A DNA stretch of 64,000 bases from Escherichia coli (GCF_965641715.1 NZ_OZ282453.1); one strand, 5' to 3'; counted from the stretch's first letter, positions 11,820 to 27,077 are shown. Program-made: numbers and translations. The notes: a model not told the origin generated them from the letters alone.

Positions 11820-13571
11820 ATGATTCAGGACGCTTTTGTGCGCCAGCGTGCGCGACAACTTTACTGGCAGGGTTATCCGCCCGCTGAAATATCACGTCTG
11901 ATGGGAATAAACCCGAACACGATTTATGCGTGGAAAAAACGCGACCAGTGGGATGAAACGCCACCCGTGCAGCGTGTCACGCAGTCCATCGATGCGCGCC
12001 TCATCCAGCTTACTGAAAAACAGAATAAAACAGGCGGTGACTTTAAGGAAATAGACCTGCTGACCCGGCAGCTTAAAAAACTGCATGATGGCCAGCCGGA
12101 TGCGACGGCCACAGGAAAGAAAGGCCGGGCGAAAAAGCTTAAAAATCATTTCACGCCGGAACAGATTGCCGCACTGCGGGAAAAAATCATCAGCAGGCTG
12201 GAGTGGCATCAGCGGGGCTGGTTTGACTCCCTGACCCTTTGCAGGGAAGCCGGGATACGTAACAGGATGATCCTGAAATCCCGACAGATTGGGGCGACCT
12301 GGTATTTTGCACAGGAAGCACTGCTGATGGCGCTGCGTGACGATGTGGCGCAACCTTACCAGCGTAACCAGATTTTTTTGTCTGCGTCGCGTCGTCAGGC
12401 GTTCCAGTTTAAAAGCATTATTCAGAAGGCTGCATCTGAAGTTGATGTGGAGCTGAAAGGGGGCGATAAAATCATCCTCTCCAACGGCGCAGAGCTGCAT
12501 TTTCTCGGCACTTCTGCTGCGACGGCACAGTCCTACACAGGCAATTTTTATTTTGATGAATTTTTCTGGGTCAGTCGCTTTGCTGAACTGCGCAAGGTGG
12601 CTGGCGCTATGGCAACCCTCAGCGGGCTGCGACGCACCTACTTCTCCACGCCATCAACCGAAACGCACGAGGCATACGTCTACTGGAACGGCGACCGCTG
12701 GAACGAGAAAAAGGCCGCGCATAAACGCCAGCGTTTTTCTGTGGACTGGAAAACGCTGCATAACGGGCTTATCTGCCCCGACCGGACGTGGCGGCAAATT
12801 GTCACGCTGGAAGATGTGGTTAATCACGGCTGGAAACACACCGATATTGATGAAATTCGTGATGAAAACACCGAAGACGAGTTCCGCAATCTCTATATGT
12901 GTGAGTTTGTCCGCGAAGGGGAATCGGCATTTAACCTGAATATCCTGATTGGCTGCGGTGTTGACGGATACGACGACTGGAAAGACTGGAAACCTTTTGC
13001 TCCCCGCCCGATGGGGAATCGTCCGGTATGGATTGGGTATGACGCAAACGGCAGCAGTGGAAACGGCGACAGTGGCGCGGTGTCCGTGGTGGTTCCTCCG
13101 GCTGTTCCTGGTGGCCGTTTTCGAACGGTGGAGACGCGACGCGTTCAGGGGCTGGAGTTTGAAGAACAGGCCAGAGTCATTGAAGAGTTCACGTGTCGCT
13201 ACAACGTGGAACACATCGGCATTGATGTGACGGGCGGGAACGGGGAGGCTGTTTATCAGATAGTGAAACGGTTTTTCCCTGCCGCTATTCCGTACACCTT
13301 CACGCTGTCATCAAAACGGTCGCTGGTACTGAAAATGCTGCAAATAATGCGTGCCGGGCGGTGGGAATACGATCGCGCCGAACGCGAGCTGGTCGCGGCC
13401 TTTAACGCCGTGCGTAAGGTGAAAACACCGGGCGGCTTTATCACTTACGAAACGGACCGCGCGAGGGGGATCAGCCACGGCGACCTTGCGTGGGCAACCA
13501 TGCTTGCTGTCATTAACGAACCAATTGGCGGCGAAGGAGAAAACGAGCGTTTCACGGTTATGGAGTTCTGA
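11820..13571 (+). CDS. Terminase large (ATPase) subunit gpP-like
   Basis: 583 aa; divergent from O as in P2; ATG preceded by GGGGGAG; terminase ATPase region. Confidence 0.9.
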   Translation: MIQDAFVRQRARQLYWQGYPPAEISRLMGINPNTIYAWKKRDQWDETPPVQRVTQSIDARLIQLTEKQNKTGGDFKEIDLLTRQLKKLHDGQPDATATGKKGRAKKLKNHFTPEQIAALREKIISRLEWHQRGWFDSLTLCREAGIRNRMILKSRQIGATWYFAQEALLMALRDDVAQPYQRNQIFLSASRRQAFQFKSIIQKAASEVDVELKGGDKIILSNGAELHFLGTSAATAQSYTGNFYFDEFFWVSRFAELRKVAGAMATLSGLRRTYFSTPSTETHEAYVYWNGDRWNEKKAAHKRQRFSVDWKTLHNGLICPDRTWRQIVTLEDVVNHGWKHTDIDEIRDENTEDEFRNLYMCEFVREGESAFNLNILIGCGVDGYDDWKDWKPFAPRPMGNRPVWIGYDANGSSGNGDSGAVSVVVPPAVPGGRFRTVETRRVQGLEFEEQARVIEEFTCRYNVEHIGIDVTGGNGEAVYQIVKRFFPAAIPYTFTLSSKRSLVLKMLQIMRAGRWEYDRAERELVAAFNAVRKVKTPGGFITYETDRARGISHGDLAWATMLAVINEPIGGEGENERFTVMEF

Positions 13572-14617
13572 TGAGCAGAAAAAATAAAAAAGTGCGCATG
13601 AGTTCACGCATTGATCTCGCTGATGCGCTCAGGAAAGAATCGTCGCTCAGTGCATTCACATTTGATGGTCCTTACCGCCTGACCGGGCATGACCTGCTGG
13701 ACAATATGTACTGTGCTGATAACGGGCGGTGGTATGAAACCCCGGTGGACTGGTACGGTCTGGCAAGAGCCGCCCGGCAAACGTCCTGGCATCAGTCTGC
13801 GCTTTACTTTAAGCGCAATGTATTGCTCGGTTGCTACATCCCGCACCCGCTGCTTTCCCGGCAGGATTTCTCGGCGCTGGCGCTGGACTGGTTTGTGTTC
13901 GGTAACGCATTCCTTGAGCTTCGGAGCAATATGCTCGGCGAACCACTTAAATTACGGCACGCACTGGCGAAATACATGCGACGCGGAAGCGATCTTGAAT
14001 CATGGTGGTATGTGCAGGATGGCAAGGACGCGTTTCAGTTTCGCCCTGGCAAAGTGTGCCACCTGATGAATCCGGACATTAACCAGGAAATTTACGGCAT
14101 GCCGGAATATCTTGGCGCATTACTCTCGGCCAGCCTGTCTCATTCGGCGGACATGTTCAGAAAACTGTACTACGACAATGGATCCCACGCCGGGTGCATC
14201 ATCTACATCGGTGCAGCGCAGGTAAACCGCGAAAGCATGGACTCCCTGAAGGAAACGCTACAGGGTGCGCGTGGTGGTGGTGCATTTAAAAACGTGCTCA
14301 TTCACGCGCCCAACGGGGGCAAAGAAGGTGTGCAAATTTTGCCGTTCCAGCAGATCACCGCAAAGGATGAGTTCATGAATGTTAAGGCGGCATCCCGTGA
14401 TGATGTGCTGGCTGCGCACCGCGTTCCGCCGCAACTGATGGGGGCGATGCCGGGCGAAAAAAGTGCGTTTGGTGATGTGGAGAAGGCAGCGCGGGTTTAC
14501 GCAATTAACGAGCTGATGCCCGTCATGGAGGCCATGAAGCATATCAATGACTGGCTTGGCGAAGAGGTGATCCGCTTTAACCCTTACGCACTGCTGGACA
14601 CCCAGCCCACATCCTGA
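13571..14617 (+). CDS. Portal protein gpQ-like
   Basis: 348 aa; start overlaps the P stop (ATGA); P2 portal-like. Confidence 0.9.
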   Translation: MSRKNKKVRMSSRIDLADALRKESSLSAFTFDGPYRLTGHDLLDNMYCADNGRWYETPVDWYGLARAARQTSWHQSALYFKRNVLLGCYIPHPLLSRQDFSALALDWFVFGNAFLELRSNMLGEPLKLRHALAKYMRRGSDLESWWYVQDGKDAFQFRPGKVCHLMNPDINQEIYGMPEYLGALLSASLSHSADMFRKLYYDNGSHAGCIIYIGAAQVNRESMDSLKETLQGARGGGAFKNVLIHAPNGGKEGVQILPFQQITAKDEFMNVKAASRDDVLAAHRVPPQLMGAMPGEKSAFGDVEKAARVYAINELMPVMEAMKHINDWLGEEVIRFNPYALLDTQPTS

Positions 14618-15141
14618 CGCGCTTCGCTTGTCTGCTGCTTCGCCGGGGCATAAAAAATTTATGCCCCGACTCTCCAGCTCCTGTATCAATCAGATAATTT
14701 CACGACGTCTTCCAGCTTATCGCCATCATCGACGGTCAGGCTCTTACGCAATCCCACCGCGTTGACTGCATGTTCTTGCCGCCTCAGTGCGATTTTGACG
14801 GCCTTATCTGTCACCCCATCAAATCAAAAGCCCTCACGCCTTTTTCACGCTCAGTGTGAGAAATACAGCCATTCTGTTGTGTCGCTGCGACATCGTTCAG
14901 GGAATGCTATTTACCCCCTGAAACGCGGGCTGTTCCCCCGTCACCTGCGCGCAGAAAAAACGCGTTTTTTTGTGCACGCACGGATCCTTGACGGATCCAG
15001 TCGCCACGCGGGCCGGAAGGGTAAAAAGTTGTTCAAAAAAATTGTGCAAATTTGTGCACTATTGTGCGGTGTATAAAATGAAAATATGGCGGTGTTATTA
15101 CTGCCCAACAAGCCGTTATACTTACGTTATGGGCGTGCATA
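14618..15141. other. Non-coding interval where cos and the packaging site are expected by P2 synteny; cos itself not identified
   Basis: Lies between portal stop and phd start; contains inverted repeat GGGGCATAAA/TTTATGCCCC (14645-14667), palindromes CTGCGCGCAG and A6CGCGT6 (14945-14970), two GGATCC sites 11 bp apart and TTGTGC repeats. Confidence 0.3.
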
Positions 15142-15498
15142 ATGGAAATGAATATGAAAACTGTAACTGATGATGAATTTCGTGAGAACCTGAGTGAAAT
15201 TCTGGATTACCTTTCTTCCGGTGGCAGTGTCGTTATCACGGCGCAGGGAGGGAAGGATGTTGTTCTTGCTGGTTCTGATCTTAGTCCTGAAATACGGGCT
15301 GTCCTTGGCAAAACCAAAAAACTGCGGGATCAAATAAACAAAATGAAGCAACCACTCTTAATAAATGCAGTGAGAGATCTGGAAAAACGTCATCCAGCTC
15401 TTGTCGCACAGAGAAAAAAAGGATTGTCTTTTGAAGATGCAATGAAGCGTACAAGAGAAAAACATGCGGATATCATTAAAAAGCTTGAGGATAACTGA
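15142..15498 (+). CDS. phd: Phd/YefM-family antitoxin (118 aa, C-terminally extended)
   Basis: N-terminus ...KTVTDDEFRENLSEILDYLSSGGSVVITAQGGKDVVLAGSD has the Phd/YefM pattern; stop overlaps the doc start (ATGA at 15498). Confidence 0.7.
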   Translation: MEMNMKTVTDDEFRENLSEILDYLSSGGSVVITAQGGKDVVLAGSDLSPEIRAVLGKTKKLRDQINKMKQPLLINAVRDLEKRHPALVAQRKKGLSFEDAMKRTREKHADIIKKLEDN

Positions 15499-15905
15499 TG
15501 GACATAGTGTTTTTGTCAAAAGAACAAGTAGAACGTATCCATGCTGAAACTTTACCCCAGAGCGGAAATGCCAATGACGGGCTACTTGAAGGTGCTTTAA
15601 ATCGCGTCAGGACACTACACTACTATGAAGGGGTTGATGATATTCATGCTCTGGCTGCTATGTATTTGATTGGTATAGCCAAGGCTCATGCCTTTCATGA
15701 TGGGAATAAACGCACAGCTTTTCAGGCTGCATCAATATTTTTAATGATGAACTCTTCCGAACTTTCAAACTCCCTGCTGCTGGTTAAATTAACGGTGTTT
15801 TCAGCAATGGGGATAGCTACCCTTGAGGAAGTTACCTTTGCTTTGAAATTGCTGTCTGATTATGGCAATGAATTAATCAGCGACTACGAAGAAGATTATA
15901 TTTAA
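15498..15905 (+). CDS. doc: Doc-family toxin (Fic fold)
   Basis: 135 aa; Fic/Doc signature HAFHDGNKRTA present; coupled to the upstream antitoxin. Confidence 0.85.
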   Translation: MDIVFLSKEQVERIHAETLPQSGNANDGLLEGALNRVRTLHYYEGVDDIHALAAMYLIGIAKAHAFHDGNKRTAFQAASIFLMMNSSELSNSLLLVKLTVFSAMGIATLEEVTFALKLLSDYGNELISDYEEDYI

Positions 15906-16071
15906 TGCTGGCATACTCTGTCGTGTTAAGACAACAGCCTTTGCGGAGACAGGGCAGGGTGCCAGACTTGCCCGCAGCGCGTCTGACATGAGCAGTTATT
16001 CATCTTTTTTATTGTTTTTCTCCATGCAGGGCGACAGTGCGCCCCGATAAAATTAAAAGCCGTCAAATTCG

Positions 16072-16407
16072 TCATTCATGCGTTTTTTCTTCATGGTCTG
16101 TCACTTCTCTCCTGATAACTTCATTGCACAAATCAACGCACTCATTGCAGATGTAAACAGACGGTCCGGCAATCACCTTTGTGACTTCGTACTGGGATTT
16201 ATTGCAGAAGCTGCAATAAATCGTCTCCTCACCTGAAGTCCATGTTTTGCTGGTTTCGCCAGACATCAGTTGTTTGAGGTCTTTTTCACGACGAAGAACT
16301 ATCTGGCCACATTCAGCTATTTTTTGGATGTTGACATTTTCTTCTTTCGCCAGCGCTTCCATCCGCTCAATCAGTCGCTGCGCTTTTTCTCTGTCAATGC
16401 GTTGCAT
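16072..16407 (-). CDS. Small protein with C-terminal ClpX-type C4 zinc-binding domain
   Basis: 111 aa; C-terminus [36 protein letters not shown] matches the ClpX N-domain (LYCSFCGKSQHEV...YICDECVDLCNDII); N-terminal half predicted helical/charged. Confidence 0.7.
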
Positions 16408-16470
16408 TGTGTCCCCCTTGTTTATGTTCCCGGGTTAAAGTCATCAGGGCGGATGCGCCCTGATGTTGTG

Positions 16471-16782
16471 TTATTCGGGAAATAACGCCCGGATATTTCC
16501 GGCCATCTGACTGGTTATCTGTGCGGTTGATACTGGCTGTGACGCGGGGCGTTCTGTCCTGGTTTGTGTCACTGATAACGCTTCATCATCAGCCCATGCA
16601 GCCAGTCGGTAAGCCTCTGCCGGATTCATTTTCAGAAGTGCCAGCCCGGCCAGAAAAGCCACGCGTTGGCCGCTTTTGCGCGCTTCTGGTGTAAGGCTGT
16701 CCAGCCAGGCGCATGCTTCACCTTCGTTCTTGACGGCGGCGGGCTTCAGATAGAAACTTATCCGTCTGGTTGGAGTCGTCAT
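16471..16782 (-). CDS. parR: ParR-like DNA-binding partition adaptor; start at ATG 16782
   Basis: 103 aa from MTTPTRRISFYLKPAAV...; aligns with what I recall of R1 ParR (RRTIAFKLNPDV...LDS...AGLAL); ATG lies 5 nt after the parM stop, with AGGAG upstream. Confidence 0.55.
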   Translation of the reverse strand: MTTPTRRISFYLKPAAVKNEGEACAWLDSLTPEARKSGQRVAFLAGLALLKMNPAEAYRLAAWADDEALSVTQTRTERPASQPVSTAQITSQMAGNIRALFPE

Positions 16783-16786
16783 TGGT

Positions 16787-17746
16787 TTACTCCTTGTCCA
16801 TTGCGTACAGCCCATTAACCAGAGCAAACTGTGGCACCCCGTCCGCGATGAAAGTCGCATTAACTCCGCAGGCTTCGCGGATAGCGGGTGCCACAATCTC
16901 CGCCCCGCCACCGACAACCATCACCCGCCCGTAACCCGAAAAAACCGCCAGCGCGCGGATCACGCGTTGTTTCAGTGTTTCTTCCTTTTCACGAATAACC
17001 GCCATCAGGCTGGCGTAATGCGCGTCATTGTGGATGTGCTGGCGCAACCAGGCTTCATCATGGCGATGTTCGATAATGGTATTGGCGATGTGGTGACTGA
17101 TACGCATACCGTTAGTGGCCATCACCGACAGTACGGCATCGGCCATCAGGGAAACGCCTACGTGTGGATCGCAAAACACCTGGCTGATACCTGCCAGTTG
17201 CCCCTGAACCTTTGCCACATCCAGTGTGGTTCCGCCCAAATCCACAATCAGCAGGGATTCAAGCGGACTCATGTCAGCCAGTGCTTTAAAGCCAGCCGGA
17301 ATGGATTCAGGCATAACCCGTACGTTACGGATAGTGAATGTTTCGCCGTTCTGGTACTCCACCGGGCGCATAACGTTCGCTTTTTTGCGGCTGATGTTGG
17401 CCATGTCCGGCTGTGCGTTTGTGTCGAAATACTCGCTCAATGGCAGGGTGACAACCACATCCACCTCCTGTGGCGTGATGCCTGATTTGACCAGCGCGTG
17501 ATGAATGGCAATGACATTCACATCGCTGTACTGGTATTGCGTGTCGGTCGTCTGGACAAAGCGATCGCTGACCGGATCAAAACCATAGCGCACGCCATCA
17601 AGCATGTAGTTCGCGGGCTGCGAGCCACCGAACGGCGCAGACCATTCCGACTTGAAGCTGTTCGGGCTGATGGCGTTGCGGCGTTCGCCGTTCTCAGTCC
17701 ATGCCAGCTTGATGTTGGTGGAGCCGTCGTCGATACAAATTTTCAT
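16787..17746 (-). CDS. parM: ParM/StbA actin-like partition ATPase
   Basis: 319 aa; MKICIDDGSTNIKL..., ISPNSF, YSDVNV, KKAN, FTI.NV.VMPESIPAG, DLGGTTLD and VMV.GGGAE blocks parallel plasmid R1 ParM. Confidence 0.9.
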   Translation of the reverse strand: MKICIDDGSTNIKLAWTENGERRNAISPNSFKSEWSAPFGGSQPANYMLDGVRYGFDPVSDRFVQTTDTQYQYSDVNVIAIHHALVKSGITPQEVDVVVTLPLSEYFDTNAQPDMANISRKKANVMRPVEYQNGETFTIRNVRVMPESIPAGFKALADMSPLESLLIVDLGGTTLDVAKVQGQLAGISQVFCDPHVGVSLMADAVLSVMATNGMRISHHIANTIIEHRHDEAWLRQHIHNDAHYASLMAVIREKEETLKQRVIRALAVFSGYGRVMVVGGGAEIVAPAIREACGVNATFIADGVPQFALVNGLYAMDKE

Positions 17747-17783
17747 GTCGCTTTTCCTTATGTTGATTAATTAATCGTTTACA

Positions 17784-17890
17784 GGATTTTTAAATCCCGC
17801 TTTTGCCTGTTTTGTGCGCGCTTCATATATCGCGGCACGTTTTTTGCTCATTTATGGGATTTGTGAATCCCGTTTCTGTCTGTTTTTTGT
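17784..17890. repeat. Two imperfect 33-bp direct repeats, each with a GGGATT/AATCCC hairpin and T-run, upstream of parM and overlapping the 3' end of gene A
   Basis: GGATTTTTAAATCCCGCTTTTGCCTGTTTTGTG (17784-17816) and GGATTTGTGAATCCCGTTTCTGTCTGTTTTTTGT (17857-17890). Confidence 0.5.
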
Positions 17891-20645
17891 TTCCACTGGT
17901 CAGGCCACCCCGCAGCAGGTCTGCTTTGCGGCTGGCGCGTTCAGTGGTTTCACTGATTCTCTGTGCGTGCTCTGCGTCGCGGATGGCGCGCAGCATGTCA
18001 GAAAGCACGGTAACGGGTGTTTTCATGGTGTTCTGGTCCTGCTGAAGTGTGGATGCCAGGCGTGCGGCGGCTTCAGGGTCTGATGCCCCCAGCTGTGCCA
18101 GATAGCTGGCGACCGGGTTATGGCGGATCTCCGTGCTGCTTACGCCATGATTACGGCTCAGGCGCTGCCAGAGCTGCGTGATTCGGCTGTCCGGGCGGGT
18201 ATCCGGTTTGCGTACAATTTCAAATCCCTGCGGTGCAATGATGCTGCCGTCAACGTACAGACTGCCGCCCCGTAACAGGTGCTGCATCTGTTGTTCACCG
18301 ATATGCAGGCCGAGAGATTCAGCAGACTCCCGCCATTCTTTAGCGAGTAATTCGTGGTTATCAGGCAAAGGCCGTGGCTGTTTGCGGCTCTGTGTCCAGC
18401 TCTGCATTTCATCACTGCTGTTTTTTGCCTGTTTGTCACGAAGCGAACGCATCAGCGCCCGGCGTTCGTGCCGTTTCAGTGAGCGCATCCATTCGTTCAC
18501 GTCAACGCCGTCAGGAAGCTGCGGCCACGGTGCTGGCCGTTCTTTCGACTGTTCTGTCCCGCTGTTGCCTGTTTCCTGTACACGGGGACAGTTATTGCCA
18601 CGAGTCCAAGGGGCGGCAGGGCCGCCCTGAAGGTCAAAACCATTTTCGCGGGCGCTGTCTTCCGTTTCCGGTTTACGTCTTACCAGTTTCCAGTTATCCG
18701 GATGCGTGCACACACGGGAGGATTCCCCGATGAGTGGTGACCAGATCCCGTAAATCTGTACGCTCTGTTCGCCGTAATCATTCAGCTCATCTGCGAGGTC
18801 GTAGGCGGTGCGAATCAGGTAGTCTTTGCGTGGAACAAGTACGCCGCCCTGTTTTTCAATGTAGGTGGCAAAACACCCGGCATCGGCGGCAGCGAGTACC
18901 GCATCCATTGCGTCATCTTTCAGTCGTTGCGGGCCTTCCGGGTTGCGTGCCATCTGGCTGGCAAGGCGGCGCAGTTCACGCCACACCTGACGGGAGGGGA
19001 TGCCAAAGAACTGGAACTGGCGGACCCGATGAAGGCGCGCCCAGCCGATGGCGCGCTCCACACTCTCGGCCATTGATTTTCCGGTTTCGTGGTCAACGCG
19101 TGGCTTGCCCGTTTTCGGGTCGATGCCATCCACGGCGCGGCTGTCCAGGTTCTTTCCGATGTAGGTCGCGATATAGCTGGTTGGTGTGCCTTTTGAGCCG
19201 TCGACATACTCCGCCTTAAAGCGCGGAGTAATATCATTGCCCAGCTCGTGGCGGTCTTCCTGAATGGCAATATCGCGGGTGATGGCCACGATGCTGTCGA
19301 TTTCTTCCGGATGAGCAAAGACCATCATATGCCAGTGCACGGTGCCGTCATGGTGAGGCTCCACCGTGCGGATGCCATACCAGCGAAGACCGTCGCGGTT
19401 CAGTTTTTTGCGGACCGCCGCAAAAAACGTGTTAACCAGGTAATCGCTGGAGTCGCGCATGGTGGCCCCGTTCCATTTGGGATTCGGATGACCGTTCTCT
19501 GTTGTGGCGTGGTATTTTGACGGGCAGGTGACAGTCAGAAACACCGCTTTGTCGCCACGGGCTTCGGCCAGAAGTTCCAGCCCCTTCATGGTGGCCATCA
19601 TTTCTGCCTTACGGTGAACCGGGTTACTTACTCCCGCGTAATACACCGTCTCGAGATCAATCGTGAACCCGTCTTCATTTTCCAGCATGAAACTTTTCAG
19701 GAAATCGCGTGTTTTCTCGCGCTGTGCGCGAAACTCGCTTAACGCGTCCTGGCTCAGATAGGGCGATGTTTTTCTGGAAACCAGACAGGCGGCGCGGAGT
19801 TGTTCTTCTCTCCACTCGCAACGTAACAGCCACAGTTTGCGTTTCCACCATTCTGCACAGGTCAGGCGAAGGATTGCGCCCGGCAGCAGCTCCGTGTCCG
19901 GTTCGTTCCTCTGGTCTTTGTCTGTTGTCAGTGCGTCATAATGTGGAGGCATGGCGTGCAGGTGTAACGCCATGCGGGCCAGCATCTGATACGCCTTCAG
20001 CGTTACATCCATGGTCAGTTCGCCATCGGTCGCGCCAAAGCCATCGCAGAGTTTTTCGAAGGTGCTGCTGAACATCGCCGCCGTCATGGTGGCCAGTGTC
20101 TGTATCTGGTGTTTGTTGAGCTGCGGCAGGTAAAGCAAATCGTCCAGGCGTTCGCGTCCGGCAAGGGAGCGATAACCCTGTGTCAGCCAGCGGTGATCGG
20201 TGCGCTCCAGACGTTCGAATATTTTGCGCAGGTTTCCGCGCGCGTAGCGTTCAGCCTGCCAGCTCTTTTTGCCTTTCTGACGATCGGCTTCCTGTTTTTT
20301 GCGCAGGAAGGAGAGGTGGCGAATAAGCGGATCGCGCAGATAGGACGGCAGCAGGCGCAGCGAGGCCATGGCTTCATCCACCGCGCCGCGTGCCTGTTTT
20401 CTGGCATCTCCTGCCAGTGTGATGGTTTTGTCCTGTTTTTCCTGTGCGTCCAGGCTTTTATTAATCAGGTTGCCCAGCGGCGTTGCGGAGAACGCCGCAT
20501 CAGCCATTTCCTGGCGGTGCTCGTTCTCTACCCGGTAGGCATCCAGCCAGGAGGAAAGCGCGGATTCAGGAGCGGGGATCCCCGTTCCTTCACGCCCCAC
20601 TGCGTGGCGCGGTTGTTGCCAGTCCCTGATGTACTCTGCCGTCAT
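17823..20645 (-). CDS. Replication initiation protein (P2 gpA-like rolling-circle endonuclease)
   Basis: 940 aa; P2 A position; HUH-like motif ...HHDGTVHWHMMVF...; translationally coupled to the upstream 121-aa ORF. Confidence 0.65.
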   Translation of the reverse strand: MTAEYIRDWQQPRHAVGREGTGIPAPESALSSWLDAYRVENEHRQEMADAAFSATPLGNLINKSLDAQEKQDKTITLAGDARKQARGAVDEAMASLRLLPSYLRDPLIRHLSFLRKKQEADRQKGKKSWQAERYARGNLRKIFERLERTDHRWLTQGYRSLAGRERLDDLLYLPQLNKHQIQTLATMTAAMFSSTFEKLCDGFGATDGELTMDVTLKAYQMLARMALHLHAMPPHYDALTTDKDQRNEPDTELLPGAILRLTCAEWWKRKLWLLRCEWREEQLRAACLVSRKTSPYLSQDALSEFRAQREKTRDFLKSFMLENEDGFTIDLETVYYAGVSNPVHRKAEMMATMKGLELLAEARGDKAVFLTVTCPSKYHATTENGHPNPKWNGATMRDSSDYLVNTFFAAVRKKLNRDGLRWYGIRTVEPHHDGTVHWHMMVFAHPEEIDSIVAITRDIAIQEDRHELGNDITPRFKAEYVDGSKGTPTSYIATYIGKNLDSRAVDGIDPKTGKPRVDHETGKSMAESVERAIGWARLHRVRQFQFFGIPSRQVWRELRRLASQMARNPEGPQRLKDDAMDAVLAAADAGCFATYIEKQGGVLVPRKDYLIRTAYDLADELNDYGEQSVQIYGIWSPLIGESSRVCTHPDNWKLVRRKPETEDSARENGFDLQGGPAAPWTRGNNCPRVQETGNSGTEQSKERPAPWPQLPDGVDVNEWMRSLKRHERRALMRSLRDKQAKNSSDEMQSWTQSRKQPRPLPDNHELLAKEWRESAESLGLHIGEQQMQHLLRGGSLYVDGSIIAPQGFEIVRKPDTRPDSRITQLWQRLSRNHGVSSTEIRHNPVASYLAQLGASDPEAAARLASTLQQDQNTMKTPVTVLSDMLRAIRDAEHAQRISETTERASRKADLLRGGLTSGNKKQTETGFTNPINEQKTCRDI

Positions 20646-22184: not shown

Positions 22185-22384
22185 CTGCGTGACTCTTGTA
22201 CCTGTCGGATAAGGTTCACCCGCACCACATTCGTGGCGCAGAAGTAAGTGCCGTCAGTGAGATAGATGTGATGTGCATCCTTTTCTGAACGGTGTTTGTC
22301 GATTGTGGTAATCAGGCGTTCGTCGACTTCGTATTCACGCCCTCTGGAGGTAAAACGAACGACAGGAAAATGCTTAATTGCCAT
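22181..22384 (-). CDS. Hypothetical early protein
   Basis: 67-aa ORF, coupled to the downstream gene. Confidence 0.45.
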   Translation of the reverse strand: MAIKHFPVVRFTSRGREYEVDERLITTIDKHRSEKDAHHIYLTDGTYFCATNVVRVNLIRQVQESRR

Positions 22385-22469
22385 TACGCCTCCTTGGCGT
22401 GTGCGAATACCTCCGCGAATGCGGATTGTTTTACATTTTCTTATTTAATCTGTGGTTTTATTTGCTCTG

Positions 22470-22583
22470 TTATTCGCCAGTGAAAAAGCGTTCAATCTTT
22501 TTTATTGAATGAATAATTCGCATAATCCCAATAGCGCAGGCCACCGAAATAATCAGAACAAGCCATGAGATAAATATACTCAT
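22470..22583 (-). CDS. Unannotated 37-aa hydrophobic peptide (MSIFISWLVLIISVACAIGIMRIIHSIKKIERFFTGE)
   Basis: My own translation; ATG overlaps the stop of the upstream 81-aa ORF (ATGA); one predicted TM helix plus a basic tail; below the track length cutoff. Confidence 0.35.
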   Translation of the reverse strand: MSIFISWLVLIISVACAIGIMRIIHSIKKIERFFTGE

Positions 22584-22825
22584 GCGATATTCCCCAGCTT
22601 ATACGGTTCAATATGTTCCCCGCACTCTGCGGCACAGATCAGCTCGGAAAGTTCGTTAAGTGCATCCAGATCATCAGCGTAAAAAGCCACGTCATACAGA
22701 CTTCGGATTGCTCTGGTCAATGAGTCACGGGCCGCACGTTCAGCATGAGCGCCTGATGCACTTAAGCGAAAATAAAAACGCTCAAGTGCTTTGTTAATGA
22801 GAGTTTTATATTCTTTGCCCATCAC
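22580..22825 (-). CDS. Hypothetical early protein
   Basis: 81-aa track ORF. Confidence 0.45.
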   Translation of the reverse strand: MMGKEYKTLINKALERFYFRLSASGAHAERAARDSLTRAIRSLYDVAFYADDLDALNELSELICAAECGEHIEPYKLGNIA

Positions 22826-22833
22826 AACGCCCT

Positions 22834-23121
22834 TTAATCTGCTTTCTGTATTTCAGCTTCTGAATCCATACAAATAATTTCGATATAGGGTTCATCGCCA
22901 TTAACCTGGCGTGCCTTTTCAGCTTCGCTAATGATTTCTCGTACGGTCTGGTACGGAAGTTCCACAAGCAGTCGCGTGCCGTTCAGATAAACGTAAGTGG
23001 CTTCGTCGGCTCCGTTTTTACCCGCCGGAGTTACTCCGTCAATAGCGGATGCACGTAATAACAGTTCACCGCGAAAATCAATAAAACGGATAAATACACC
23101 TTGTGCATGGTCTTTGGTCAT
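22834..23121 (-). CDS. Hypothetical early protein; start moved to internal ATG 23121
   Basis: Track ORF 22834-23235 overlaps the upstream gene by about 100 nt; the internal ATG removes the overlap. Confidence 0.4.
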   Translation of the reverse strand: MTKDHAQGVFIRFIDFRGELLLRASAIDGVTPAGKNGADEATYVYLNGTRLLVELPYQTVREIISEAEKARQVNGDEPYIEIICMDSEAEIQKAD

Positions 23122-23131
23122 AAAGCACCTG

Positions 23132-23473
23132 TTATAAATCAGCCTGTTTAATAAAACTTTGCCCGCGAAGCAGACGATCAACCGTGCGAAGTGCTTCGTA
23201 TAATGTGAAATCCTGCCCGAACTGATTGTCGCCACTGCTTAGAGCAAAAATGCGGTTTCCGGTAAACGGATTGCGTGGGCATTTGTGGATCACGATTCCA
23301 GCTTTCTCAATCAGCCAGGCATGCTCGCCGATTTGTTTTACTGGGTAGCCATCCGGCGTTGCATGTGTATCACTCAGGCTGTAGCGGATGTTGCTGCGTG
23401 ATGCACTGGTAGCAAAACGGTTAGCGTGGCGTTCTGCACCATTGCGAAAGCGTGAATTACGTTGCTGTTTCAT
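23132..23473 (-). CDS. Hypothetical early protein
   Basis: 113-aa track ORF. Confidence 0.45.
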   Translation of the reverse strand: MKQQRNSRFRNGAERHANRFATSASRSNIRYSLSDTHATPDGYPVKQIGEHAWLIEKAGIVIHKCPRNPFTGNRIFALSSGDNQFGQDFTLYEALRTVDRLLRGQSFIKQADL

Positions 23474-23474
23474 G

Positions 23475-23582
23475 TTAAAGACTCTGTACAGATTTAATTA
23501 TTCCGGCATAGAGGCCGAACTCAAAATATTTGCGATTAAATCGCATCGCATTGTTTTCACGTTTTGCGGACTGCTGGTTCAT
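23475..23582 (-). CDS. Unannotated 35-aa basic ORF (MNQQSAKRENNAMRFNRKYFEFGLYAGIIKSVQSL)
   Basis: My own translation; GGAGG 8 nt upstream of the ATG; its TAA stop lies 1 nt before the ATG of the 113-aa ORF. Confidence 0.3.
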   Translation of the reverse strand: MNQQSAKRENNAMRFNRKYFEFGLYAGIIKSVQSL

Positions 23583-23725
23583 TTTCGTTTGCCTCCGCAC
23601 ATGAGAATTGCGCCGCTTAAGAGGTAACCGAAGTTAATTGATAGTATTACAATTAACATAAGGTCCAATTTGTCCATGCCACACATAATTACCCTCATTG
23701 CAGTAGTTGCGGGTTGTCAGGTTTC

Positions 23726-23932
23726 TCACCCGATAAACCAGATAACAAACGCTATAAACATCGCCCCAATAGCTGCCGGGAAAAGTCCTTTGGTATAAGC
23801 GGCGATATATTCAATGCTGAGTTCAATAAAGCGTTCTTCATGTCCCGTTAACTTGCGAAACAAATAGATCTCTATTACGCCTATCTCAATAAAAACAAGG
23901 GTCAGAATGGCGCTGATGATATGGCTGGTCAT
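23726..23932 (-). CDS. Small membrane protein
   Basis: 68 aa with two hydrophobic segments; immediately downstream of cox. Confidence 0.5.
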   Translation of the reverse strand: MTSHIISAILTLVFIEIGVIEIYLFRKLTGHEERFIELSIEYIAAYTKGLFPAAIGAMFIAFVIWFIG

Positions 23933-23938
23933 TTATGA

Positions 23939-24226
23939 CTAAAGTCCCAGCCACAACAACCATGCGTCGCGGCGTTCTTTCGGTTGCTCAAAAAACGCTT
24001 TGCGCATGCCTTCGTTAAATGCTGGCAGATATACCCAGTTTTCTGATGCACGCGTCTTTACTGAACCTGGTTTCACAAAGTCAATTGTCGGTAGCTTTGC
24101 TGCGTCAATCATGGTTCTGACTGTGGATTCCTTGCGGCCGATCATCTTGGCGAATAGTTGATATGGCACCGCTTCAAGTGGATATGGTGCTACCTGAATG
24201 AACCCCCCAAGCTCTGATTCGCTCAT
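23939..24226 (-). CDS. cox: Cox-like regulator/excisionase
   Basis: 95 aa; PYQLFAKMIGRKESTVRTMID...LPTIDFV...NWVYLPAFNEG...RDAWLLWLGL parallels P2 Cox as I recall it; divergent from C. Confidence 0.8.
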   Translation of the reverse strand: MSESELGGFIQVAPYPLEAVPYQLFAKMIGRKESTVRTMIDAAKLPTIDFVKPGSVKTRASENWVYLPAFNEGMRKAFFEQPKERRDAWLLWLGL

Positions 24227-24660: not shown

Positions 24661-24756
24661 GGCCAGAAAACTGGTTAGACCTGCTTTTTGTCTGGTCTGA
24701 TTATTGCTGGAAAGAGGCTGGAGAAATTGTAGAGCGGTTCATTGGAGGGCTTCGTA

Positions 24757-25761
24757 ATGTCGATTAAGAAGCTCGAAGATGGTCGTTATTTGCTGGACAT
24801 CAGGCCGAACGGACGCAAGGGAAAGCGCGTGCGTAAGGTATTTGACAAAAAATCGGTAGCGGTGGCCACTGAACGCTACATCATGGCGAACGCTGAAAAG
24901 CGGGAATATATACAGGGCTACCGTGATCGTCGAACGCTAAATGATTTGCTTGAGTTGTGGTGGATGTATCACGGCCAGCACAGGCGTAAGGCGGAAGAAG
25001 ACCGAAAACAACTGCGCAACATAATCAATGAGCTTGGCGCTGATATGCAGGCTGTGGATCTTGATAAGCTGAAAATTATCGCGTGGCGTTCTCAAAAGAT
25101 AGCTGAAGGATTGAAACCGTCATCTGCTAACAGGTACATGAATCGGTTATCCGGAATGTTTACCGTGCTGAAAAAAATAGGTCTTTGGGATGCAGAACAT
25201 CCAGTAAGGGGAATTTCTATTCTTTATGTATCTCCACGAGAAATGGCGTTCCTGTCACAGAAGGAAGTGGCGCTATTGCTCGATACACTGGAGGGCGACT
25301 ACTGGCGTGTTGCGCTTTTGTGTTTAAGCACAGGGGCGCGCTGGAGTGAAGCTTGTAAGCTTCGTGGTGAACAGATAGTTCATAACCGTGTAACGTTTCT
25401 TGAAACCAAAAATGGCCGGAAGAGAACAGTGCCAATTTCGCAGGCAGTTTGTGAGGCGATCAAAACCAGAGAAACAGGCGGCTTGTTTGAGGTGAAGTAC
25501 CGGGAATTCTGCCTGGCGCTGAAAAGAGTTAAGCCCGACTTACCAAAAGGCCAGGCTGCACATGTGCTGCGGCATACGTTCGCCAGCCATTTTGTGATGA
25601 ACGGAGGAAACATTATTGCGCTTCAGAAGATTCTTGGTCACGCAACCATTCAGCAAACAATGGCATATGCGCATTTTGCACCGGATTACCTGCAGGATGC
25701 GGTGGCCCTTAATCCGCTGAAAGGTGGCGTAAGTGTCCACGCAGTGTCCACGGGGGATTAA
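24757..25761 (+). CDS. int: Tyrosine integrase, P2 type
   Basis: MSIKKLEDGRYLLDIRPNGRKGKRVRKVFDKKS... parallels the P2 Int N-terminus; ATG 24757 preceded by GGAGGG; C-terminal catalytic region HVLRHTFASHFVMNGG...LGH. Confidence 0.9.
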   Translation: MSIKKLEDGRYLLDIRPNGRKGKRVRKVFDKKSVAVATERYIMANAEKREYIQGYRDRRTLNDLLELWWMYHGQHRRKAEEDRKQLRNIINELGADMQAVDLDKLKIIAWRSQKIAEGLKPSSANRYMNRLSGMFTVLKKIGLWDAEHPVRGISILYVSPREMAFLSQKEVALLLDTLEGDYWRVALLCLSTGARWSEACKLRGEQIVHNRVTFLETKNGRKRTVPISQAVCEAIKTRETGGLFEVKYREFCLALKRVKPDLPKGQAAHVLRHTFASHFVMNGGNIIALQKILGHATIQQTMAYAHFAPDYLQDAVALNPLKGGVSVHAVSTGD

Positions 25762-25919: not shown

Positions 25920-27077
25920 TTGTCAGAGACTGAAAAAGGGTTAAAAATCCTTGTTGATGAAAATATGCCTTATGCCCGCGACTTATTTAGCCGTTTGGGT
26001 GAGGTGACCGCGGTTCCCGGGCGTCCAATCCCCGTCGCTCAACTGGCAGACGCGGATGCGCTGATGGTGCGTTCGGTCACGAAAGTGAATGAATCTTTGC
26101 TGGCAGGAAAACCCATTAAATTTGTTGGCACTGCCACTGCGGGGACCGACCATGTCGATGAAGCATGGTTGAAGCAGGCGGGAATTGGTTTTTCCGCTGC
26201 ACCTGGCTGTAATGCGATTGCGGTGGTGGAATATGTTTTCTCCTCCCTGCTGATGCTTGCCGAACGCGATGGATTTTCACTGCACGAGCGTACCGTGGGG
26301 ATCGTGGGCGTTGGTAATGTTGGTCGGCGTTTACAGGCACGACTGGAAGCGTTAGGGATTAAAACCTTGCTTTGCGATCCGCCTCGCGCTGACCGTGGGG
26401 ATGAGGGTGATTTCCGCTCGCTGGATGAATTAGTTCAGCATGCGGATATTCTGACTTTCCATACGCCACTTTTCAAAGACGGGCCGTACAAAACGCTGCA
26501 TCTGGCGGATGAAAAACTGATCCGTAACCTGAAGCCAGGAGCGATTCTGATTAACGCCTGCCGTGGCGCAGTCGTCGATAATACCGCGCTGCTGACCTGC
26601 CTGAATGAAGGCCAGAAGTTAAGCGTAGTGCTGGATGTCTGGGAAGGCGAACCGGAACTTAACGTGGAGTTGCTGACAAAAGTGGATATCGGCACGCCGC
26701 ATATTGCAGGCTATACCCTGGAAGGTAAAGCACGCGGTACTACGCAAGTGTTTGAAGCCTATAGCAAGTTTATTGGGCATGAACAGCACGTTGCGCTGGA
26801 TACATTACTACCCGCGCCAGAGTTTGGTCGCATTACACTGCATGGCCCGCTCGATCAACCGACGCTGAAAAGGCTGGTGCATTTGGTGTATGATGTGCGC
26901 CGCGATGACGCACCGCTGCGTAAAGTCGCCGGGATACCGGGTGAGTTCGATAAACTGCGCAAAAACTATCTTGAGCGCCGTGAATGGTCATCTCTGTATG
27001 TAATTTGTGATGACGCCAGTGCGGCATCATTGCTGTGTAAACTGGGTTTTAACGCCGTTCATCATCCGGCACGTTAA
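25920..27077 (+). CDS. pdxB: Erythronate-4-phosphate dehydrogenase; start codon uncertain (TTG 25920 or ATG 25965)
   Basis: Near-identity over ...[21 protein letters not shown]... to E. coli PdxB as I recall it. Confidence 0.9.

Follow-up and report, generated by a model that had tools for sequence, protein, structure and literature searches.

A plasmid-type partition cassette as putative backbone, with two accessory modules as cargo, between the replication and portal genes of a P88-like prophage of Escherichia coli

Why should a phage that resides in the bacterial chromosome carry a partition system of the plasmid type? The question is raised by positions 14618-17890 of a 64,000-nucleotide stretch that matches the chromosome of Escherichia coli RM10740 at 100% identity (GCF_965641715.1, NZ_OZ282453.1; "the window" is this whole stretch), where genes for an antitoxin and toxin (Phd and Doc), an actin-like ATPase (ParM), its adaptor (ParR) and a 111-aa protein with a ClpX-type zinc-binding domain (ZBD) lie within a P88-like prophage (Xuanwuvirus, Peduoviridae) inserted beside pdxB. 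The nearest phage records, among them P88, PhiR44_2 and Citrobacter phage phiSM, are 93-97% identical to it over the shared parts. A first, sequence-only reading had assigned the locus to the gpA-gpQ (old/tin) hotspot of a chromosomally integrated P2-like prophage and had named the five proteins, and on these points it stood: the flanking genes encode the replication endonuclease and the portal protein, with variable content between them near cos; profile and structure searches confirmed Phd, Doc, ParM, ParR and ZBD, which are also the five products given by RefSeq; and the prophage is integrated, since its integrase directly adjoins the host gene pdxB. Comparison across genomes indicates that the interval is a mosaic, in which parM-parR with the repeats upstream of it is part of the backbone of the phage lineage rather than hotspot cargo, and in which the ZBD gene and phd/doc are two independent cargo modules. 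We consider it fairly probable (roughly 0.6) that the partition cassette segregates extrachromosomal circles of the phage genome, with ZBD and Phd/Doc as independent accessory genes. The features of the region, in order of position, are:

11820-13571, plus strand: terminase gene P
13571-14617, plus strand: portal gene Q, flank of the hotspot (TIGR01540 portal_PBSX, 3.9e-64; phrog_68)
14618-15067: conserved non-coding region near cos, 94-96% identical to P88, PhiR44_2 and phiSM
14686-14814, minus strand: small annotated open reading frame (ORF) in the cos-proximal region
15023-15067: short tandem repeats of TTGTGCA type, 3-4 units (Tandem Repeats Finder, TRF)
15154-15498, plus strand: phd, antitoxin gene, cargo (RefSeq start; the ORF is open from 15142; PhdYeFM; phrog_375; WP_001561011.1)
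15498-15905, plus strand: doc, toxin gene, cargo (TIGR01550; Fic; phrog_577, 2.9e-26)
16072-16407, minus strand: gene for the 111-aa ZBD protein, cargo (zf-C4_ClpX; 1ovx/2ds5; phrog_6797)
16442-16465: hairpin with a 10-bp stem directly behind the parR stop codon (minimum free energy of the whole fragment -25.2 kcal/mol, z -4.8)
16471-16782, minus strand: parR, adaptor of 103 aa (Plasmid_stab_B; phrog_2515)
16787-17746, minus strand: parM, actin-like ATPase (StbA_N and ParM_N; match to R1 ParM; phrog_691)
17775-17815, minus strand: proximal direct repeat, candidate parC/operator, over a weak promoter-like stretch (palindrome 17781-17800)
17848-17890, minus strand: distal direct repeat, inside the 3' end of gene A (palindrome 17854-17873)
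17823-20645, minus strand: gene A, replication endonuclease of 940 aa (phrog_91, 1e-275; phrog_6857; RefSeq product 'replication endonuclease')
24742-25761: integrase gene, adjoining host pdxB
25920-27077: host gene pdxB

The division into backbone and cargo follows the ends of homology. P88 and PhiR44_2 match the window over 14400-15067 and 16075-18100, and phiSM, which lacks the ZBD gene, over 14400-15080 and 16468-18100, with breakpoints at 15067, 16075 and 16468; the variable part is therefore 15068-16467, which leaves parM, parR and the repeats in conserved sequence. Segments were then counted over 5426 complete E. coli genomes. The parM-parR segment (16471-17890) was found in 1306 of them (24%), at 1453 places of which 1451 are chromosomal, and at least 80% of the cassette is retained in 1277 of the 1306 genomes. 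All 11 of 11 sampled rows that cover parM also fall under a 'replication endonuclease' feature, and parM-parR adjoins gene A in 14 of 14 P88-type phage records. The ZBD gene occurs in 111 genomes and the phd/doc allele of the window in 19, where every copy is at least 99.8% identical, so that it apparently represents a single recent lineage. At least 80% of the whole interval is present in 17 genomes. The expectation that the five genes travel as one block was thus contradicted, both by these unequal counts and by the end of the phiSM homology at 16468.

The slot between parR and the conserved region on the cos side was measured in the 47 IMG/VR loci that have both anchors. Its length ranges over 533-3713 bp, and 39 different contents occur in it, among them ead/Ea22-like genes, a DUF4760 protein, or the ZBD gene with one to four small genes behind it. 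Here, phd/doc stands in place of the genes that usually follow the ZBD gene, with the breakpoint exactly at the ZBD stop codon. At the other end of the slot, the hairpin CAGGGCG-loop-CGCCCTG is kept in many cargo types with varying loops and one compensatory stem variant (CAGGGCA...TGCCCTG), and on this comparison the predicted structure is where the conserved early operon closes and the variable slot starts. The hairpin lies in a 63-nt gap between parR and the ZBD gene, so that the ZBD gene is not, as had been proposed, translationally coupled to parR in an operon. A T-rich tail follows the hairpin on the plus strand, and the structure may also terminate transcripts arriving from the cargo side.

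Several smaller observations concern the slot and its edges. The TTGTGCA-type repeats coincide with the cos-side breakpoint, homology to other P88-like phages stopping at 15067-15080. A 49-aa minus-strand ORF (15926-16075) overlaps the ZBD stop (ATGA), and its first ~11 residues are found again at the beginning of a 109-aa ORF in cargo types without ZBD; it looks like shared junction sequence rather than a gene. In sister phages the slot after parR holds an IetA-like AAA ATPase (PADLOC, 4e-89) with a 734-aa S8 peptidase (IMG/VR loci L010, L047 and L049), or a pair made up of an AbiL-like protein of 399 aa and a partner of 172 aa (L028, L057 and L063).

The five-gene arrangement is already published, and its novelty is low: Table S5 of Rousset et al. 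2022 (PMC9122126) lists exactly this order of five domains, under the same accessions that RefSeq gives here. The same study noted that about one in four P2-like phages has a partition system, and speculated on an episomal phase. It scores parMR as hotspot content. The locus analysed here shares the flanks of the old/tin hotspot, replication endonuclease and portal, but here parMR behaves as a constant backbone element of a single lineage, and the variable slot opens only behind the hairpin that follows parR. For annotation and the mining of defence systems, parMR should accordingly be treated as backbone and the variable slot counted from the hairpin behind parR; otherwise each cargo set in P88-type phages is mis-scored as 'associated with ParM'. 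What the present analysis adds is the boundary between backbone and cargo, the constraint on ParM and its ancient linkage to gene A, together with a palindromic candidate parC, a mosaic ParR and the distribution of the ZBD family over plasmids and phage-plasmids. A literature search found no paper testing parMR function in P88-like phages.

The cassette itself closely resembles the ParMRC (StbA/StbB) system of plasmids R1 and NR1, with which it shares the order repeats, parM, parR and an A/C-rich, repeated sequence upstream of parM. ParM matches the StbA_N (5.6e-82) and ParM_N (5.4e-68) profiles of Pfam, aligns over its full length with the R1 ParM structures 1MWK and 4A62 (E = 7.5e-94), and aligns end to end at 47% identity with the IncFII protein, with all nucleotide-binding motifs present. 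In an alignment with the D6, IncL/M and IncFII proteins (47-53% identity) DDGSTNIK, PES and DxGGTTLD do not vary and GGGA varies only in its last position (A/S), and the protein thus has the phosphate-1, phosphate-2 and adenosine motifs of the actin-fold ATPases of type II partition. Over 70 distinct full-length alleles, the ratio of nonsynonymous to synonymous substitution rates (dN/dS) of ParM is 0.07, compared with 0.26 for parR and 0.23 for the 3' 900 nt of gene A; constraint is stronger on ParM than on the neighbouring stretch of gene A. The PHROGs families of both ParM (691) and ParR (2515) are annotated 'partition protein', that of ZBD (6797) being of unknown function.

ParR belongs to the StbB/ParR family (Plasmid_stab_B, 2e-24 in Pfam). 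The real gene encodes 103 aa and not the 148 aa of the maximal ORF first taken for it; it starts 4 nt past the parM stop behind an AAGGAG site. With R1/NR1 ParR it has in common the N-terminal R-x-I-x-F-x-L-x-P strand region and a C-terminal K/R-N-x-x-x-L, although the P88-type protein is shorter, without a helix after the putative ribbon-helix-helix core, and only 22-25% identical to the compared plasmid ParRs. The 88 loci compared yield 48 different ParR sequences. These scarcely vary over residues 1-18 (MTTPTRRISFYLKPxxVK), with MTTPTRRISFYLKP at the N-terminus invariant; residues ~66-95 are hypervariable, falling into several types near 53% identity, and the C-terminal NIxALFPE is kept. 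The C-terminal (K/R)-N-x-x-x-L-(F/I)-P is common to the P88, Serratia, D6, IncL/M and IncFII (R1-type StbB) proteins, and the equivalent tail of R1 ParR binds ParM (PDB 4A62). The AlphaFold 2 monomer of ParR has an extended N-terminus and helices at 18-28, 32-52 and 54-61, compatible with a ribbon-helix-helix core; a sequence search against solved structures gave no matches for ParR. The protein is mosaic: types only ~53% identical follow ParMs of 98% identity. Many E. coli matches to the 16471-17890 query start only at nt 258, which places a recombination boundary of the hotspot inside parR. A covariation of ParR with parC was considered and dropped, the two ParR types having identical N-terminal strands and showing no difference in their repeats.

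Upstream of parM lie two direct repeats, which are real, as the sequence-only reading had it, but are ~41-43 nt long with a 2-nt indel rather than 33 bp. Each contains one 20-bp palindrome with the consensus ACGGGATTnnnnAATCCCGT; the palindromes are 73 bp apart, the repeats lie 30-145 nt upstream of parM, and the distal one falls within the final 22 codons of gene A. The ACGGGATTnnnnAATCCCGT palindrome has three matches in the window at up to 3 mismatches (0.17 expected), two of them at the repeats. Across 85 loci the palindrome arms are conserved, the 4-nt spacers vary and the rare arm changes are uncompensated, and a protein-binding site therefore fits better than an RNA stem. The motif CA(A/G)AAACG precedes the P88 repeats. 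A repeat family of its own stands upstream of parM in every ParMR system compared (IncFII, IncL/M, D6 and Serratia), as classic A/C-rich 11-mers in IncFII and as TTCTCAA units in D6. We infer that the repeats at 17775-17890 are a candidate parC, to which ParR would bind. An iteron of CAAAAACG type was also tried; counted as an exact word, it matches the window 8 times where 7.5 would be expected, which is no enrichment, and it is retained here only for its resemblance to the R1 and Serratia repeats. In one IMG/VR locus (L029) a single hybrid repeat stands upstream of parM instead of two, as if the two copies had recombined, deleting the end of gene A.

How old is this arrangement? The parM-parR genes run in the same direction as gene A, at the distal end of the early operon cox...A-parM-parR. 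In the plasmid database PLSDB, six records have a ParM at least 95% identical, and the ~5000 others are all below 60%, with none between 60% and 95%. The records at or above 95% that were inspected are phage genomes or megabase-sized 'plasmids', which we take to be misassigned chromosome. This gap points to a phage-specific ParM clade with no recent capture; of the proposal that the cassette is a captured plasmid stability block, there survives at best an ancient capture. In a scan of a genome collection with one genome per species, 44 loci were found, including one informative intermediate relative: in Serratia quinivorans gene A (48%) is followed by a methylase-like dam gene, a 165-bp spacer with three or four units of 'AAAAC plus short palindrome', parM (59%) and parR (38%). 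We also noted that in Escherichia albertii NBRC 107761 (L090) gene A (96%), ParM (98%) and ParR (54%) are combined with a portal and terminase only 30-35% identical, and this A-parM block with a foreign head module implies that A and parMR move together as a replication-partition module. On these sequence comparisons, ParMR is old and under strong constraint in the P88 lineage.

A segment of ~45 nt inside gene A (18580-18629), which codes for GGPAAPWTRGNNCP, is 91% identical at the DNA level in P2-like phages of Klebsiella, Salmonella (SopEPhi, SEN8) and Yersinia, in which the flanking gene A sequence does not align. The segment lies ~0.75 kb from the upstream repeats and is probably a cis-acting origin or nick region.

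On the R1 ParMRC paradigm, ParR dimers would bind the upstream repeats, and filaments of ATP-bound ParM, captured by the conserved C-terminal tail of ParR, would push sister phage circles apart. P2-type replication yields monomeric circles. Partition would act on the extrachromosomal genome, after infection and before integration, after excision or during replication, and so would make it less likely that one daughter cell is left without the phage, or would spread the templates. The ZBD gene would be a moron-type gene beyond the operon-closing hairpin, its product most plausibly acting as a decoy or a competitor for those substrates and adaptors whose handling requires the ClpX N-domain. The phd/doc pair would be a self-contained cassette that has a promoter-like region of its own, entered a single sub-lineage in one insertion event and may serve as an addiction or abortive-infection module. 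The comparison with R1/NR1 also brings out differences: the host replicon here is an integrating P2-like phage, the cassette is collinear with the phage replication operon, its ParM belongs to a clade confined to phages, and two ~41-nt repeats with 20-bp palindromes, one within gene A, take the place of the 2 x 5 11-bp iterons of R1.

Several points weigh against partition of phage circles as the explanation. Where R1 has ten iterons, there are only two repeats here, with perhaps three motifs resembling CAAAAACG, and a promoter scan found no consensus sigma-70 promoter between A and parM. The phage collection contains no phage with a P88-type gene A 3' end and without parMR, and because all phages with that end carry parMR, the repeats cannot be assigned to ParR by exclusion. 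A Foldseek search with the AlphaFold 2 model of ParR gave no fold match in the PDB, none being below E = 4.8. Since nearly every copy is chromosomal and an integrase is encoded, partition could operate only transiently or on rare occasions. As to the ZBD protein, a decoy role is suggested by its domain identity; a dN/dS of 0.6 was discarded as uninformative, having been obtained from 3 sequences only.

A more specific version of these ideas can be put forward tentatively. ParMRC might act as a cytoskeletal element of the phage, coupled to its module for rolling-circle replication, separating or positioning monomeric circles during the establishment of lysogeny or lytic growth, and not serving plasmid maintenance; the ZBD protein might then be a ClpX N-domain decoy that reprograms the choice of ClpXP substrates, for example by protecting phage proteins or by blocking ClpX-dependent rivals such as Mu-like phages.

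Could P88-like phages instead be facultative phage-plasmids, in which ParMRC, helped here by Phd/Doc addiction, keeps a stable episomal lysogen? We regard this as doubtful, and as weaker than transient extrachromosomal partition. In its favour, the ParMRC cassette is complete and under strong constraint, a related parMR and a homologue of ZBD are found in the P1-like D6, and in the plasmid prophage P1 addiction is provided by Phd/Doc (PMC4963847). Against it, chromosomal sites account for 1451 of the 1453 copies counted in complete E. coli genomes, phiSM is reported to integrate (PMC6456863), and phd/doc is present in 19 genomes only. Also in favour of an episome is pZ1323PEC0009-2 (NZ_CP148288.1; L004), a circular 'plasmid' record of 34,461 bp that is a complete P88-like genome, but it retains the integrase and could be an excised form. 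Besides the integrase it encodes Cox and a repressor, as well as a Hok/Gef gene and a Com/methyltransferase pair near ogr. A 26.7-kb Shigella 'plasmid' was rejected as evidence for an episome, the record being linear, with IS1 copies, and probably an unplaced contig. D6 itself is a true plasmid prophage with a StbA-type ParM (47.5% identity) followed by ParR and preceded by repeats, and with a ZBD homologue (orf93, 49%), but there parMR and the ZBD gene are separated by 20 kb.

The ZBD protein is best understood by its relation to ClpX. It matches the zf-C4_ClpX profile of Pfam (3e-17) and the structures of the E. coli ClpX N-domain (1OVX and 2DS5-2DS8; E ~1e-19 to 2e-19, with 1e-19 for 1OVX/2DS5) at ~72-78% identity over 36-43 aligned residues. 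All four Cys ligands of the ClpX N-domain are present, at columns 65, 68, 87 and 90, which are conserved in the family alignment. The AlphaFold 2 model (mean predicted local distance difference test score, pLDDT, 81.7) comprises a helical hairpin (6-48), a disordered linker (51-59) and then the zinc-binding domain, which superimposes on 2DS5 with a root-mean-square deviation of 0.7 A at 72% identity. Unlike ClpX, the protein thus has a 50-residue helical hairpin and a disordered linker N-terminal to the domain, and the AAA+ module of ClpX is absent from its 111 aa (48-49 bits against the ClpX equivalog models, which have cut-offs of 359-371). It looks like a protein that carries a captured copy of the host ClpX N-domain. 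Full-length homologues (49-51% identity) are found in the P1-like phage-plasmid D6 and on plasmid pEc1079_2, in both cases among ead/Ea22-type early genes and, in D6, 20 kb from parMR; since these homologues occur away from parMR, ZBD is independent of the partition operon, to which the sequence-only reading had assigned it. The ClpX N-domain recognises substrates such as MuA and FtsZ as well as adaptors, and is dispensable for ssrA tags (PMC5415555), which makes a role as decoy or competitor the simplest hypothesis for the ZBD protein. The stand-alone ClpX N-domain protein represents a small, widespread and uncharacterised family of phages and plasmids for which there is an obvious biochemical test.

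The toxin–antitoxin pair, in turn, looks complete and self-contained. Doc matches Pfam Fic (5.6e-11), scores 53.6 with TIGR01550 DOC_P1 (cut-off 38.65) and includes the sequence HAFHDGNKR, which conforms to the HxFx(D/N)(A/G)NKR motif of Fic-fold toxins. Phd matches PhdYeFM_antitox of Pfam (5.5e-6, residues 5-42) and scores below the cut-off of the NCBIfam phd_fam model (16.6 against 20.8), so that it is assigned to the Phd/YefM antitoxins, its gene lying directly upstream of doc with a 1-nt overlap at 15498, and not to that subfamily. A promoter-like TTATTA-16-TATACT precedes phd. The pair shares with P1 Phd/Doc the antitoxin gene placed first and overlapping the toxin gene, the HxFxDGNKR motif in Doc and an N-terminal Phd/YefM domain in Phd. 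P1 Phd is ~73 aa long. The Phd of the window differs in having 114-118 aa, of which only the first ~40 residues match the profile, and in belonging to an integrated element.

Because P1 Phd is a ClpXP substrate (PMC4963847, Table 2), it is tempting to link ZBD with Phd, such that a ClpX N-domain decoy tunes the turnover of Phd by ClpXP and thereby sets the trigger of Doc. The recognition of particular substrates and adaptors by the ClpX N-domain (PMC5415555) would allow this, the ZBD gene and doc are convergent with 166 bp between them, and ZBD adjoins 17 of the 19 phd/doc copies. As these copies appear to belong to one lineage, their adjacency does not amount to independent co-occurrence; moreover, ~94 of the 111 genomes with ZBD lack phd/doc, and no phd/doc was found within the 4-5 kb flank examined around the D6 and pEc1079_2 homologues. 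A functional pair of this kind appears improbable.

A filament-based exclusion system, directed against plasmids or phages and formed by ParM/ParR alone or with the ZBD protein, had been suggested by the position of the cassette in the gpA-gpQ interval, where defence systems accumulate (PMC9122126), and could be thought to gain from the IetAS-like and AbiL-like systems in the neighbouring slots of sister phages. We judge it very unlikely, since parMR is invariant backbone and not variable cargo, and parM-parR has its own upstream repeats, as in a self-partitioning module. StbA-containing loci are absent from the table of systems tested by Rousset et al. (PMC9122126). In PADLOC-DB 2.0 there was no match for ParM, ParR, ZBD or Phd, and Doc gave weak matches only, to the candidate families PDC-S23 and PDC-M59B (7e-6 to 6e-4). 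With ParM ~47-53% and ParR 22-25% identical to the compared plasmid proteins, cross-talk between centromeres is unlikely as well. Least credible of all is a decaying, functionless relic of an old plasmid capture: the cassette is almost always integrated, its repeat set is minimal, the linker of ParR is hypervariable, with truncation of the protein in one allele, but the dN/dS of ParM with its intact ATPase motifs, the retention of at least 80% of the cassette in 1277 of 1306 genomes and the synteny with gene A maintained down to 59% ParM identity in Serratia all speak against it.

Elsewhere in the region, the P2 cos 19-mer was not found with up to 3 mismatches allowed, and an Rfam scan of 14000-18500 gave nothing beyond one sub-threshold chance match. 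A stretch of low GC content in the early region of the prophage (22250-24000; 0.43-0.45 against ~0.55) contains small minus-strand ORFs without NCBIfam matches and may be a further accessory slot.

The question of why an R1-type actin partition system is retained by an integrating phage lineage that 24% of complete E. coli genomes contain is not new, yet worthwhile and easily testable. The system is tractable, as P88 and phiSM plaque on laboratory E. coli, and a clean phenotype would reveal how a plasmid-type actin motor serves an integrating virus.

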